A stretch of DNA of 63,544 nucleotides, counting the filler. It is 5 parts of 5 records of this genome, joined end to end, with 100 filler letters (N's around TTAATTAATTAA, not from the genome) between each part and the next. Parts side by side here need not be neighbours in the genome. Positions count along the whole stretch, not along the records: positions 5,891 to 22,050 come from SRR31156797_3864; 4 more parts are not named here. One strand, given 5' to 3'. The position numbers and the translations under genes are program-made. This document shows, in pieces, positions 5,791-32,603 of this stretch (position 1 is the stretch's first letter; the number at the start of each line of letters is the position of its first letter). The notes beneath the pieces are model-generated. The model saw nothing but the letters and a program-made list of their open reading frames with translations, had not been told where the DNA came from and made no database searches.

Positions 5791-5890
5791 NNNNNNNNNN
5801 NNNNNNNNNNNNNNNNNNNNNNNNNNNNNNNNNNTTAATTAATTAANNNNNNNNNNNNNNNNNNNNNNNNNNNNNNNNNNNNNNNNNNNN
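5791..5890. other. Artificial contig spacer (N44-TTAATTAATTAA-N44)
   Basis: Identical 100-nt linker with six-frame stops occurs four times. Confidence 0.99.
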
Positions 5891-5918
5891 ACCGGGGGTT
5901 CGAATCCCCCCCTCTCCG
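5891..5918 (+). tRNA. tRNA 3' fragment, probably tRNA-Ser (T-arm and 3' acceptor strand, CCA not encoded)
   Basis: ACCGGGGGTTCGAATCCCCCCCTCTCCG: GGGGG-TTCGAAT-CCCCC T-arm and a Ser-type ...CTCTCCG end. Anticodon not in the contig; tRNA-Ser before ffs-dnaX is a common arrangement. Confidence 0.8.
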
Positions 5919-5925
5919 TATTTTT

Positions 5926-6048
5926 CCCTTCAGTGTTGATTCCCAGGCTCCATGCAATTGAACATCGCCCAACCCGGTCAGGACCGGAAGGTAGCAGCCG
6001 TAAGCGAACGTTTGATGTGCCATGGCAGGCTTGGAGGGAGCTGGAGGG
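5926..6048 (+). ncRNA. ffs: Small SRP RNA (4.5S)
   Basis: Helix-8 signature GTCAGGACCGGAAGGTAGCAGC at 5977-5998 inside a long hairpin (CCCTTCAG...CTGGAGGG) followed by a T run; directly upstream of dnaX. Ends approximate. Confidence 0.93.
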
Positions 6049-6072
6049 ATTTTTTTTGCCCTCCCCTTAATC

Positions 6073-6101
6073 TTGATGGCAGCCCCCCTTTCAGATATAC
6101 T
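6073..6101 (+). promoter_or_regulatory. Sigma70-type promoter for dnaX
   Basis: TTGATG (6073-6078), 17-nt spacer, TATACT (6096-6101); ATG 9 nt downstream with no SD. Confidence 0.6.
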
Positions 6102-6110
6102 TGACCCCAT

Positions 6111-7313
6111 ATGGAATTTGAAGTTACCGCCTCACGGAAACGACCTCAATCTCTCGTCGAGTTGTCGGGTCAGGATTTTGTCGTAGCCACCCTCAAGAAC
6201 TCTATCGAATCGGGACGCATAGCCCATGCCTATCTCTTTTCCGGTCCCCGCGGAGTGGGTAAAACATCGTCGGCCCGCATTTTGGCCCGGTCTCTCAACT
6301 GCGAGAAGGGCCCCAGCATCACACCCTGCGGCGTCTGTTCCAACTGCGTGGAGATAGCCCGGGGCAATTCGATGGACGTTATCGAGATAGACGGTGCCTC
6401 CAATACGGGTGTCAACGATATCCGGGAGATCAAGGACGAGGTCCTTTTCGGACCCGGAAGCTCCCGTTATAAGATCTATATTATCGATGAGGTCCATATG
6501 CTCTCCAACAGTGCTTTCAACGCCCTGTTGAAGACTATCGAAGAGCCCCCTCCCTATATCATATTCATCTTCGCCACCACCGAGATCCACAAGGTGCCCG
6601 CCACCATCCGGTCCCGCTGTCAGCAGTTTAATTTTCGGCTTGTGGAGCTTGGAGAGATCAAAAGGCTTTTGGCCAATGTCTGCGACGAGATAGCCGTCAA
6701 GTACGATGAGGACGCCCTGTTCTGGATCGCCAGGGAGTCCACGGGTTCGGTCAGAGACGCCTATACCCTTTTCGATCAGATCGTATCCTTCTCGGAGGGC
6801 TATATCACCCTGGATAAGATCCGGGAGAAGCTCGGCCTTATAGGTATGGATCAGCTGAACGATCTGATGAGCCTGCTGGTGGAGGAGAAGGTTAACGATG
6901 CCCTGGATCTTCTGGATGCCATCCTCTCCGGAGGCGTATCGGTTGAACAGTTCATCATCGACCTGGCGGAGTATCTGAGGAACATCCTTTTTATCATTCA
7001 CGGCGTGAAGAAAGAGTCCCTTCTCGGGTATACGGCCGACCGCTTCTCATCCTCCCTGTTTGAGAATCTAAATGCCAAGCAGATAGAGTGGGCTCTGGAA
7101 GAAGCCATCACCCTGTTCAGGGAGATAAGATACTCTCTGAATCCCCGTTTTGAACTGGAACTTCTGATCAGCCGGATTTCATCCATCCGCTATCATATAG
7201 ACCCGAAGGAACTCCTGGGCGAACTGGCACGGATGCGGGAAAAACTCGGTTCCGCCGGCTCCCCCTCCGCCGTGGCTGCGCCTGTACGGGAGGCCCCAAA
7301 AAAAAAAGCCTGA
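6111..7313 (+). CDS. dnaX: DNA polymerase III subunit gamma/tau, zero-frame (gamma-length) product
   Basis: HAYLFSGPRGVGKTS Walker A, C..CGVCSNC Zn module, IIDEVHML Walker B, SRC motif; 400 aa ending at an A10 run. Confidence 0.98.
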   Translation: MEFEVTASRKRPQSLVELSGQDFVVATLKNSIESGRIAHAYLFSGPRGVGKTSSARILARSLNCEKGPSITPCGVCSNCVEIARGNSMDVIEIDGASNTGVNDIREIKDEVLFGPGSSRYKIYIIDEVHMLSNSAFNALLKTIEEPPPYIIFIFATTEIHKVPATIRSRCQQFNFRLVELGEIKRLLANVCDEIAVKYDEDALFWIARESTGSVRDAYTLFDQIVSFSEGYITLDKIREKLGLIGMDQLNDLMSLLVEEKVNDALDLLDAILSGGVSVEQFIIDLAEYLRNILFIIHGVKKESLLGYTADRFSSSLFENLNAKQIEWALEEAITLFREIRYSLNPRFELELLISRISSIRYHIDPKELLGELARMREKLGSAGSPSAVAAPVREAPKKKA

Positions 7314-7867
7314 AGCCCGCTGAGACGGGCTTGAGCGATGCCTTTGACAAGATGCTCCGCGATCGTGGAGAGAGGGTCCCCGACTCTTCTCCCGTTACAA
7401 CGGAGAAGCTTCCGGAAGAGCTCCCTCCGGTTTCTGCCGCTCCCCCCGCGGAGCTGAAGACGGAGGAAGCGGAAACCGAGGAAGAGCCGGAGATATCTCC
7501 TCATGCCGTTCCTTCCGCCGTCCATTCTGGCAATCTGCCGCCCATGGACACCCTCAAGGATCAAATATTGGGCGCCCTTCGTAGGGTGAGGCATTCCCTG
7601 GCCGCTACTATGGAGAAGGCCGAGCAGTGGGAGATGAACGGCGATACCCTCGTTCTGACATTCCGATCGACATTCGAGAAGTCTTTCCTCGAGAAGGAAC
7701 GGCATGAAATTGAAAAAATAATACTGGAAAGCCTGAACTACAGACTTCATCTTGATACGCAGCTCAGAAAGCGCGAAGAGCAGAGTACGTCGCATGAAGT
7801 GGAGGAGCAGGTGGAGTTGGTCCGCTCGGTTTTCCGCGGAACCATCATGAAAAGGAGTGAATCATGA
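7307..7867 (+). CDS. dnaX: C-terminal tau-specific part of DnaX, in the -1 frame
   Basis: The -1 frame is open from the A10 run (AGC CTG AAG CCC GCT GAG ACG GGC TTG...) into the 7331 ORF. P/E-rich linker, then a domain ending VELVRSVFRGTIM as in tau C-termini. The TTG at 7331 has no SD and sits in a hairpin. Confidence 0.82.
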   Translation, partial: SLKPAETGLSDAFDKMLRDRGERVPDSSPVTTEKLPEELPPVSAAPPAELKTEEAETEEEPEISPHAVPSAVHSGNLPPMDTLKDQILGALRRVRHSLAATMEKAEQWEMNGDTLVLTFRSTFEKSFLEKERHEIEKIILESLNYRLHLDTQLRKREEQSTSHEVEEQVELVRSVFRGTIMKRSES

Positions 7868-8184
7868 GTTTCAATCCCCTGGATTTTGTGAAGAATCTGC
7901 AGGAAATGCAGGGAAAGATGGGAGAGGTGCAGGAGAAACTCAAGGATATTGAGGCTGAGGGCAGTTCCGGAGGCGGACTGGTCAACGTCAAGATGAACGG
8001 TCAGATGGAGATCGTCGGCGTCACCATCGATCCCCTGGCGGTGGATCCCCGGGACGTGAAGATGCTTGAAGAGCTGATCGTGTCCGCGTCCACGGCCGCT
8101 TCCACAAAGGTCAGGGAGAAGATCAAGGAGGAGGTCAGCGGCATGGCAGGACTTCCTCCAGGGTTTCCCGGTATGAACATATGA
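7864..8184 (+). CDS. ybaB: YbaB/EbfC nucleoid-associated protein
   Basis: EGSSGGGLVNVKMNG, DVKMLEELIVSA; dnaX-ybaB-recR synteny. Confidence 0.96.
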   Translation: MSFNPLDFVKNLQEMQGKMGEVQEKLKDIEAEGSSGGGLVNVKMNGQMEIVGVTIDPLAVDPRDVKMLEELIVSASTAASTKVREKIKEEVSGMAGLPPGFPGMNI

Positions 8185-8768
8185 ACACCCTGGACAATCT
8201 TATCACTCTGCTCTCCCGCCTTCCGGGAATCGGGAAGAAGAGCGCCGTCCGGATGGCCTACGCTCTCCTGAAGGGAGATGAGGAGTATAACCGCCTTCTG
8301 GGTGAAGCGGTCTCCGAGCTCAAGGAGAGGATCCGAAAATGCAGGGAGTGCGGGAACTATACGGAGGAGGAGCTTTGCCCCATATGCTCCTCGGCCGACC
8401 GTGACAGTTCTCAGCTCTGTGTCGTCGAAGAGTCCCAGGATGTGATGATGATTGAGAGCACCGGGGAGTTCAGAGGGCTTTATCATGTCCTCCACGGCGT
8501 CCTCTCTCCCCTGGACGGCATGGGTCCCCGCGAACTGGGCTTCGACAGTCTGATTGAGAGGATAGACCGTCTTGATGTGAAGGAGCTCATCCTGGCGACC
8601 AATCCGACTATGGAGGGCGATTCCACGGCCCTGTACATCAAACAGCTTCTTGCGAATAGGGAGCTGAAGGTCTCCCGAATTGCCACGGGACTGCCCGTGG
8701 GGGGTGATATGGAGTATGCCGACAAGATGAGCATCTCCCGGGCCCTGAAGGGTCGGCTGGACTATTGA
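8181..8768 (+). CDS. recR: Recombination mediator RecR
   Basis: LPGIGKKSA HhH, C4 zinc finger, Toprim (ILATNPTMEGDSTA), GLPVGGDMEYAD. Confidence 0.98.
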   Translation: MNTLDNLITLLSRLPGIGKKSAVRMAYALLKGDEEYNRLLGEAVSELKERIRKCRECGNYTEEELCPICSSADRDSSQLCVVEESQDVMMIESTGEFRGLYHVLHGVLSPLDGMGPRELGFDSLIERIDRLDVKELILATNPTMEGDSTALYIKQLLANRELKVSRIATGLPVGGDMEYADKMSISRALKGRLDY

Positions 8769-30820: not shown

Positions 30821-32512
30821 TTACTTTTCCATTACTCCTGATGGAACAATAATAAGAACATCTCTTGAATCAAGAATAGTAGTTTCATCACCATAGACGT
30901 CAATCCTTGCCTTAAAAACAGGAGTCTGGTCTTTGGCAGGAATACAGAAAGAGTTTTCAAAAACCACATCAAAAAGAACCTGCGTTCCAGGAAGAACATC
31001 AATAAAAGTTGTTGGATCTATTGAGCCCACGTTTTCAGGTGGAATTGCTTCCACTGGAGAGATCGTTTTAATAAAATCAACTGACTGATAGCCTTCACAG
31101 TCACCGTCAACATGCTCTTTTCTTGTTGACACGTTTATCTGTACATGGGCAACAAGATCAAGAACAGCGGTAACGATCTGATCGCTCATTCCACTACCGT
31201 CACTACTTATCTTATAGTTGAAGTATGCACCGGAGCCATCCTTTGAGCCGGTTCCTTCTGAAATTGCATTAAAGTCATCGGTTGAATCTCCGGAATCTAT
31301 GCCGATAAATTTGGCATTTATACTGTTCATAGCTTCGATTGCTTCAGTTTTATGAATAACCGGATCTCCGCTGGAACTGTAGCTGTTGTCAGCAAAATCC
31401 TCGTCACTTGCCATAATAAAGATTGGAAGAGAGCCAGGTCTGAAACACATTCCACCATAAGTTTCTCCCGGGCAAGCGCTACCGATAATACCTAAGTTGT
31501 AGCCGTCTACATTGGCATTGTAAGGCATTCCGTTTGCAGTTCTCCAAAGAGCCAGTGTGTGATATTCATCAGAGCCACTGCAGTCATCAATAGTGTTAAC
31601 TGCGTTTTGGATCTCAGTTATGTCAAGCGTGATATTCTGCTGAATAAAATAAGGTGTATCTTGAAGTGTTCCAAATTTAACAAGTCCAAATCCAGTGTTT
31701 GGGATCTCAGCTTTTACACCATTAATAATAACGTTGTTAATTCCCTGCTTAAGGTTGCTGTGTTCTCCGCCCATTGATCCTGAAAGGTCAACAAGGATGG
31801 CGATATCTGCCTGCTGGATATCAGTTTTAAAATTAAGTGTTTCTGTAAGTTCAAACTGTGGTTTATATGGTAAAATTACATAAAAAACGTCTTCAGGGAT
31901 CACATCCGCTGAACTGGTTGGATCCGTGCCGTAGGCGATCTCAGCAAGATCATCGTATCCATCGCCATCTGTATCTTTTTTTGTAGGATCAGTTCCGTAC
32001 TGAGTTTCCTGAAAGTCTGTAAGACCATCACCGTCTGAATCAGAGTTATAGGGATTTGAGCCATTGTCATGTTCAACTTTATCCGCAACTCCATCATCAT
32101 CTGAATCTTTATCCAGGCAATCCGGTGTTTCGTCGCCATCAGTATCTCTACAAGGAAATGTCGGACATTCCATACTGTTGTTGTAGCCGTCGTTATCAGC
32201 ATCACCATCTCTTTCATAACATGGATCGTTTTTGTTCGGGTCTTCTCCGGTATTTCCTGTGTTTCCAGTATTTCCGCTGTCCCCTGTATTTCCAGTATCT
32301 CCAGAATCACCAGTATTTCCTTCATCAGGATCATTAAGATAGTCGCCGGTCTTTGGATCATAGCAGCGGTTGATCTCAAGGTCACATATACGATAAGTGA
32401 GAGGACAGTCGTCATCGCTTGCACAGTAGAATTGGCTTTGTTCCGCAGTGTCTTCAGGGCCGCAACTTACCAGAATTAATGTAAAAATCAGGAAAATAAT
32501 TAGTTTTTTCAT
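30821..32512 (-). CDS. Surface lipoprotein: Cys-rich module, G-N/D-T/S repeats, TSP3-like Ca-binding repeats, vWA domain
   Basis: Lipobox LVSC; CASDDDC..C......C; DSDGDGLTD repeats; MIDAS DLSGS. Confidence 0.85.
   Translation of the reverse strand: MKKLIIFLIFTLILVSCGPEDTAEQSQFYCASDDDCPLTYRICDLEINRCYDPKTGDYLNDPDEGNTGDSGDTGNTGDSGNTGNTGNTGEDPNKNDPCYERDGDADNDGYNNSMECPTFPCRDTDGDETPDCLDKDSDDDGVADKVEHDNGSNPYNSDSDGDGLTDFQETQYGTDPTKKDTDGDGYDDLAEIAYGTDPTSSADVIPEDVFYVILPYKPQFELTETLNFKTDIQQADIAILVDLSGSMGGEHSNLKQGINNVIINGVKAEIPNTGFGLVKFGTLQDTPYFIQQNITLDITEIQNAVNTIDDCSGSDEYHTLALWRTANGMPYNANVDGYNLGIIGSACPGETYGGMCFRPGSLPIFIMASDEDFADNSYSSSGDPVIHKTEAIEAMNSINAKFIGIDSGDSTDDFNAISEGTGSKDGSGAYFNYKISSDGSGMSDQIVTAVLDLVAHVQINVSTRKEHVDGDCEGYQSVDFIKTISPVEAIPPENVGSIDPTTFIDVLPGTQVLFDVVFENSFCIPAKDQTPVFKARIDVYGDETTILDSRDVLIIVPSGVMEK
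32246..32320 (-). repeat. 9-bp degenerate coding tandem repeat, (G-N/D-T/S)8-G
   Basis: Encodes GNTGDSGDTGNTGDSGNTGNTGNTG. Confidence 0.9.
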
Positions 32513-32603
32513 TTTTTTTTACCAAGTAATTTAGTCAACACTGATAAAATTATACTTTGTAACATATAAAAATCAATGGGGAATTTGTATTTTGACGGTA
32601 TGT

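Follow-up and report, generated by a model that had tools for sequence, protein, structure and literature searches.

Described dnaX recoding systems and the spirochaete locus

Tau, the long product of dnaX, links the polymerase to the clamp loader. In Escherichia coli, dnaX carries a -1 programmed ribosomal frameshift on the heptamer A_AAA_AAG, with a Shine-Dalgarno (SD)-like stimulator about 10 nt upstream and a stem-loop 5–6 nt downstream, and Larsen et al. (PNAS, 2000) are said to have found transcriptional slippage on nine A's (A9) in the dnaX of Thermus thermophilus. Here we describe the dnaX gene of a 63,544-nt stretch of DNA (hereafter the window) whose source is a marine, Oceanispirochaeta-like spirochaete lineage. 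The zero frame of this gene ends just past a run of ten A's (A10) and the tau-specific part follows in the -1 frame. The run is a real and conserved recoding site of a kind known since 2013, it is widespread in the lineage and it involves no new principle. Recoding, whether by RNA polymerase or by the ribosome, very probably makes tau at this locus, and we favour transcriptional slippage over -1 ribosomal frameshifting as the probable main route.

The closest described genes are those of Antonov et al. (2013; PMC3711429). According to the accessible parts of that paper, these dnaX genes consist of two open reading frames (ORFs) and make tau via recoding at poly-A; 17 genes from 12 genera are given, with a -1 shift at the DNA level, poly-A in 12, A10 in nine and runs of 7–10 A. 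Transcriptional realignment was predicted there for the A10 genes, and Chlorobi are the only group named in the text, the A10 species being placed in Figure S3. Atkins et al. (2016; PMC5009743), again as far as the accessible text goes, restate the reversed two-ORF dnaX and point out that, with an efficiency of about 50%, changing one base can swap the templated and the 'recoded' product.

Judged from its sequence, the window dnaX has every testable feature of the two-ORF poly-A type, in agreement with the claim of an earlier note on this DNA that such a layout is known from other phyla. The zero frame encodes DnaX domains I–III and stops right after the run, a poly-A tract (mostly A10 in the type) lies at the junction, tau is in the -1 frame, the -1 part is homologous to the C-termini of continuous taus, the position and direction of the shift are kept among relatives (-1 in 19/21), and the site is unannotated as recoding. 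The differences from the set of Antonov et al. are that A10–A13 runs with -1, +1 and in-frame states occur here within one clade, and that the window species adds an SD-like motif and a hairpin.

On the A9 of T. thermophilus dnaX, RNA polymerase adds or drops A's, and stops lie close in the alternative frames (PMC1088944 and PMC5009743, in the parts accessible). The window shares with this type a run of at least nine A's in the sense strand at the gamma/tau boundary, stops close after the run in both non-tau frames, and two products from one gene. However, in Thermus tau is templated and gamma arises by slippage, whereas the window is reversed. The Thermus polarity is present in one relative, L086 (A10 in frame), and in another spirochaete clade (L097, L098, L100, L104 and L111). 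The latter five have a continuous tau and an in-frame A9–A10 that sits elsewhere, at about nt 1245–1256 of dnaX, at the start of the C-terminal folded domain (R-KKK-LTLSAALEKA); their +1 frame stops after 3–4 codons and their -1 frame after 9–13. Their layout is of the Thermus type, and the gamma that slippage would make from it would retain the linker.

Like the E. coli gene, the window dnaX has an upstream SD-like motif, an A-rich slippery site and a hairpin 5–6 nt downstream at the gamma/tau boundary. It nevertheless departs from the E. coli element in most respects. A shift would yield tau in the window but yields gamma in E. coli, a reversal of polarity that the earlier note had described correctly; the only in-phase heptamer is A_AAA_AAA, without A_AAA_AAG; and there is no Rfam match. 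GGGAGG is present but at 4–7 nt upstream and not 10, and across the clade neither stimulator is generally kept.

In insect endosymbionts, too, polymerase slippage is described as rescuing conserved frameshifts at poly(A), Blochmannia dnaX among them, in the accessible part of PMC3017870. There, as here, an essential gene has long been kept out of frame at poly-A. However, the endosymbiont genomes are AT-rich, reduced and have many tracts, whereas the window is not visibly AT-rich and has one run of ten A's. Among the titles listed in a literature search, none concerned spirochaete dnaX recoding, and the A10 species list of PMC3711429 (Figure S3, outside its accessible part) could include spirochaetes. 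The accessible part of the preprint bioRxiv 10.1101/2025.10.02.679949 holds nothing on reversed dnaX.

The split dnaX gene and its conservation

The sequence of the window agreed to the base with the positions that the earlier note had given for the SD-like motif, A10, the stop and the stem (Table 1). The zero frame reads CCA AAA AAA AAA GCC TGA at the run and, as that note had also said, ends at 400 aa, while the -1 frame continues to 7867. Joining the frames at A10 adds the 186 aa past KKK in the -1 frame to 399 residues, which gives a product of 585 aa (the length that had been estimated) with the junction peptide ...APKKKSLKPAETG. Counting codons from where the run begins, the two non-tau frames meet a stop at 4 and at 7, the latter in the +1 frame. 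The frames and the relatives described below are in agreement with gamma being the standard product and tau requiring a -1 shift at A10.

The 400-aa product matched three Pfam families, DNA_pol3_delta2 (3.8e-47), DNAX_ATPase_lid (1.1e-9) and DNA_pol3_gamma3 (8.7e-11), and was 75–96% identical to DnaX of Oceanispirochaeta-like spirochaetes. A Pfam search of the -1 frame product matched no family. However, the folded part of the -1 frame and its tail (EEQVELVRSVFRGTI) align with the C-termini of continuous spirochaete taus (tblastn; alignment A1). An AlphaFold (AF2) model built from the tau C-terminal alignment (mf50ec6ea2bd5) had a confident domain at residues 80–158. The best Foldseek rows for this model were to DnaA domain I (4tps; E 2.7e-3, TM 0.65–0.70), with the tau chain of the E. 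coli Pol III complex at rank 3 (5fku_E; E 6.7e-3) and E. coli tau domain V at rank 6 (2aya; E 0.022), and no Foldseek match reached E <= 0.001. A PDB sequence profile of the -1 part matched DnaA domain I only (E 0.005–0.01). Since no Pfam family was found and the profile and fold matches were weak, the identification as tau rests mainly on the alignment with continuous taus, and on that basis we read the downstream -1 frame as the tau-specific, probably polymerase-binding end of DnaX. As a separate observation, DnaA domain I was the nearest match of the folded C-terminal domain (7301–7864, -1 frame) by both profile and fold, and DciA, besides E. coli tau domain V, was among the next matches.

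Ten close relatives (L084–L093; 80–95% identity) were obtained from a search of 401 genomes of the class. A run of A10–A13 is present at the same site in all ten, and in each of these relatives, as in the window, the non-tau frames meet a stop 3–7 codons from where the run begins. Tau is in the -1 frame in eight of the ten, in the +1 frame in L088 and in frame, with A10, in L086. A scan of genome contigs gave, among the matches listed, distant loci only, the best at 64% identity. Fourteen more distant loci were studied, 13 picked because the search of the class had shown short open frames in them, plus L105, and because of that choice the set gives no frequency. Eleven had A10 or A11, a zero-frame stop 0–3 codons later and tau in the -1 frame (56–233 aa, ending in a FRxxFKGEI-type tail), and three had a continuous dnaX.

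The window, the ten close relatives and the 11 distant run-bearing loci form a set of 22 loci. Tau requires -1 in 20 of these, the other two being the +1 and in-frame relatives (the 19/21 given above leaves out the window). Run lengths at the 21 split loci were A10 in 12, A11 in five, A12 in three and A13 in one, and none was shorter than ten. Of the comparison with relatives that the earlier note had suggested, the break and the A run held (A10–A13 in 10/10 close relatives, 9/10 out of frame), whereas the hairpin did not, being in the top decile at only 6/22 loci. The outcome that the note had named as fatal to its reading, A11 or A8 together with continuous relatives, was found neither in contigs nor in relatives.

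In the protein database, 11 of 17 clusters at >=75% identity have 396–401 aa, the last of them KKK and a single further residue, and the other six are long and read through KKK. In a tree made by quick search only and rooted at the midpoint, the window fell inside a well-supported clade of 11 sequences, all with the run. Eight split genes formed a second clade, and the tree implied at least three origins of the split state. In this second clade (L116–L123) the tau-specific parts are only 56–101 aa long, tblastn with folded-domain queries left seven of the eight unmatched (L118 had a weak match), and the C-terminal FRxIFKGEI-type motif was kept in all eight. Going by these sequences, tau in this clade may need no more than a short peptide to bind the polymerase.

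The sequencing-run evidence consisted of Logan contigs, which are consensus sequences and not raw reads. A10 was gap-free in contigs of three runs from three studies, of which X1 may be the source of the window. The other two, from other studies, also keep A10: a contig of X2 (depth about 575) covers 6700–7362 with no differences, and one of X3 covers 6818–7900 with two substitutions and no gaps. A break in the X2 contig at 7333–7362 lies outside the run, and nothing was drawn from it. The dN/dS of the out-of-frame part was 0.11–0.23 in six of eight species pairs, the two further pairs having saturated dS, which indicates that this part is under purifying selection. No second dnaX was matched in the genomes of the ten close relatives at E <= 1e-30.

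The A10 of dnaX is the only 10-A run in the 63.5-kb window, and A8 runs were not enriched (12 versus 15.6 expected). When the 66 nt around the hairpin were shuffled 200 times, 39 of the shuffles folded equally well (z -0.9), so that by this measure the hairpin is unremarkable. The tests thus differ as to chance, and it is the conservation of the A run that takes the site beyond it, not the hairpin measured against shuffles or the A8 counts. The only other run of nine A's in the window (32512–32520, minus strand) directly precedes the ATG of an ORF of 563 aa on that strand; it belongs to an AT-rich leader and not to coding sequence.

Table 1. Positions of the dnaX recoding site, its parts and neighbouring genes in the window
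Feature	Position	Strand	Evidence and remarks
dnaX zero-frame ORF	6111..7313	+	ORF list; 400 aa, gamma-like, domains I-III and short linker, end ...REAPKKKA followed by stop
SD-like GGGAGG	7288..7293	+	CCCC between motif and A10; 4 nt upstream of A10, 7 nt upstream of last in-phase A_AAA_AAA heptamer
A10 run, recoding (slippage) site	7298..7307	+	sequence; gap-free in contigs of runs X1, X2, X3
-1 frame segment, tau-specific C-terminal part	7307..7867	+	translation; linker, folded domain and EEQVELVRSVFRGTI tail; frame open from at least 7196, stop 7865-7867
zero-frame TGA (gamma stop)	7311..7313	+	two codons past A10
hairpin AAGCCCG-CTGAGA-CGGGCTT	7313..7332	+	perfect 7-bp stem, begins 5 nt past A10; arms AAGCCCG 7313-7319 and CGGGCTT 7326-7332, loop CTGAGA
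SRP RNA gene	5941-6039		Rfam, 69.6 bits; order SRP RNA, dnaX, ybaB, recR
ybaB	7864-8184	+	Pfam YbaB_DNA_bd 9.3e-29; overlaps tau stop; operon partner, context only
recR	8181-8768	+	Pfam RecR domains; downstream operon partner, context only

Transcriptional slippage as the probable main route, and the alternatives

We propose that the A10 run of this essential gene is a conserved site of programmed recoding. A message copied faithfully from the template and translated in the standard way would give the 400-aa gamma-like DnaX, with its stop two codons past the run. A share of transcripts would gain one A through slippage of RNA polymerase (A11; A8 or A14 would also serve), and in such a message the -1 frame would be in phase and give the 585-aa tau with its C-terminal polymerase-binding domain. 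Because messages in either wrong frame end within 4–7 codons, every transcript would give gamma or tau. Some -1 ribosomal frameshifting on A_AAA_AAA may come on top of this in the window species, owing to GGGAGG and to the hairpin that begins 5 nt past the run. The analysis shows the split, its conservation, selection on the -1 frame and the homology of that frame to tau C-termini; that slippage occurs, at which level (RNA polymerase or ribosome) and with what efficiency, we infer.

Transcriptional slippage is favoured because the only invariant among these loci is a run of at least ten A's with nearby stops in the non-tau frames. Both the length of the run and the required direction (-1, +1 or 0) differ among close relatives, and all split loci have at least ten A's, though seven suffice for a ribosomal heptamer. 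The Thermus site has the same marks, and it was from such marks that Antonov et al. (PMC3711429) predicted transcriptional realignment. A -1 split needs one extra A in the message, and slippage on such runs mostly adds bases, according to the accessible part of PMC5009743. The SD-like motif and the hairpin are conserved in few loci, whereas the run of at least ten A's is in every split locus and one relative requires +1, which argues for slippage as the general mechanism.

Several observations weigh against slippage as the main route. The only RNA run found, X10 (as contigs), covers 7745–7900 and not A10, and the -1 direction in 20/22 loci is also predicted by -1 ribosomal frameshifting. The others concern nucleotide conservation around the run. 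The window and its nearest relative, L084, are 78% identical over dnaX, their best-conserved 60 nt (7290–7359) are 97% identical, and their longest identical stretch, 36 nt at 7288–7323, starts exactly at GGGAGG. In the first 18 codons past the run, 13 of 16 synonymous sites are conserved between the two, compared with 54% gene-wide (P = 0.023). Similarly, 11 of 14 synonymous sites are conserved in the pair L090/L093, which has a common 10-bp hairpin (P = 0.027). Such conservation past the run was absent in five other pairs compared. An RNA polymerase that is copying the run cannot be influenced by a hairpin encoded further on, so these patterns suggest a -1 ribosomal component in the window/L084 and L090/L093 lineages.

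The best-surviving alternative to slippage is that most of the tau comes from -1 programmed ribosomal frameshifting, which would take place on the in-phase A_AAA_AAA of a faithful A10 message, with GGGAGG and the 7-bp hairpin as stimulators, which would amount to an E. coli-like cassette of reversed polarity. We consider this possible but rather unlikely. The geometry does fit (SD, 7 nt, heptamer, 5 nt, hairpin), the duplex of GGGAGG with the anti-SD (-10.3 kcal/mol) is the strongest of any 18-nt window of dnaX, and the 45 nt past A10 fold at -15.2 kcal/mol, which is within the top 2% for dnaX windows of this length. Also in its favour are the -1 direction of 20/22 loci, the conservation of synonymous sites past the run and the fact that no other stretch of nucleotides is as well conserved between L084 and the window as the cassette, and a Chlorobium reversed dnaX candidate with E. 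coli-like signals is given in the accessible part of PMC5009743. However, the SD-like motif and the hairpin are each in the top decile at only 6/22 loci, so that the E. coli-like signals to which the earlier note had drawn attention are strong in the window and in L084, where the stem is identical and the loop has one change, but in few other loci. All split loci have at least ten A's where seven would do, the +1 required by L088 cannot be supplied by a -1 shift, in-phase A_AAA_AAG is absent, and a search of Rfam found no dnaX frameshift element, either at the gathering threshold or at E <= 10.

A consensus scan flagged the hairpin, followed by CAGGC and T10, as a terminator on the minus strand, and we rejected this as incidental. 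The T run starts 5 nt past the stem, conservation extends to the run but not to the hairpin, and no minus-strand gene ends nearer than 8831, which is 1.5 kb off with three plus-strand genes between.

A split without recoding, in which the gene would make a gamma-like subunit and a C-terminal protein with a start codon of its own (TTG 7331, for instance), seems very improbable to us. An ORF from this TTG is in the ORF list and GGGAGG lies upstream of it, but TTG 7331 is the first start codon and is 38 nt from GGGAGG, and the conserved residues (KKK-SLKPAETGLSDAF) start at the run, ahead of any start codon. Moreover, nine of the 22 loci have no ATG, GTG or TTG in the first 25 tau-frame codons past the run, and the in-frame relative L086 reads straight through. 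A C-terminal domain that is not tethered would also lose tau's link between polymerase and clamp loader.

An error of assembly at the homopolymer, or a mutation that recently inactivated the gene (a pseudogene), is a hardly credible cause of the break. Homopolymers of ten are error-prone and inspection was at the level of consensus contigs, but contigs of three runs, each from a different study (one possibly the source), agree on A10, the out-of-frame layout recurs in independent assemblies of 9/10 close relatives and 11 distant loci, the dN/dS of the out-of-frame part is 0.11–0.23, albeit at saturated dS, and the relatives' genomes have no second dnaX.

To return to slippage, we speculate, though we think it rather unlikely, that recoding in the Oceanispirochaeta-like lineage has two levels, in which slippage on A10–A13 would set a baseline tau:gamma ratio and a lineage-specific -1 ribosomal shift at the SD-like motif and hairpin would tune it. 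An equally tentative part of this idea is that single-base changes in the run repeatedly flipped the genomic polarity among sister species (-1, +1 and in-frame in the 11-member clade), which they could do because the efficiency would be near one half. If this speculation is correct, the clade would be a natural series for how two mechanisms replace each other. The Oceanispirochaeta-like clade is in any case a natural series of A10–A13 runs in three frame states, with or without SD-like motif and hairpin, in which the dependence of the tau:gamma ratio on run length and flanking signals could be measured. Its members could also serve to test the suggestion in the review of Atkins et al. (PMC5009743, in its accessible part) that near 50% efficiency one base reverses the 'recoded' product. 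The split matters for annotation as well, since automatic annotation puts a short dnaX and a hypothetical protein at the locus, and the essential tau is consequently missing from spirochaete proteomes and replisome comparisons.

Surroundings of dnaX in the window

The window may be a concatenated draft, as positions 5792–5890 hold TTAATTAATTAA between two runs of 43 N, which resembles a six-frame-stop spacer used to join contigs. The stretch that bears dnaX starts at 5891 with a sequence like the 3' end of a tRNA (GGTTCGAATCC), for which ARAGORN made no call. The gene next upstream of dnaX is that of the SRP RNA, with a T8 run after it (region 5941–6057), and a promoter-like site is present at 6073–6101, ahead of the dnaX start.

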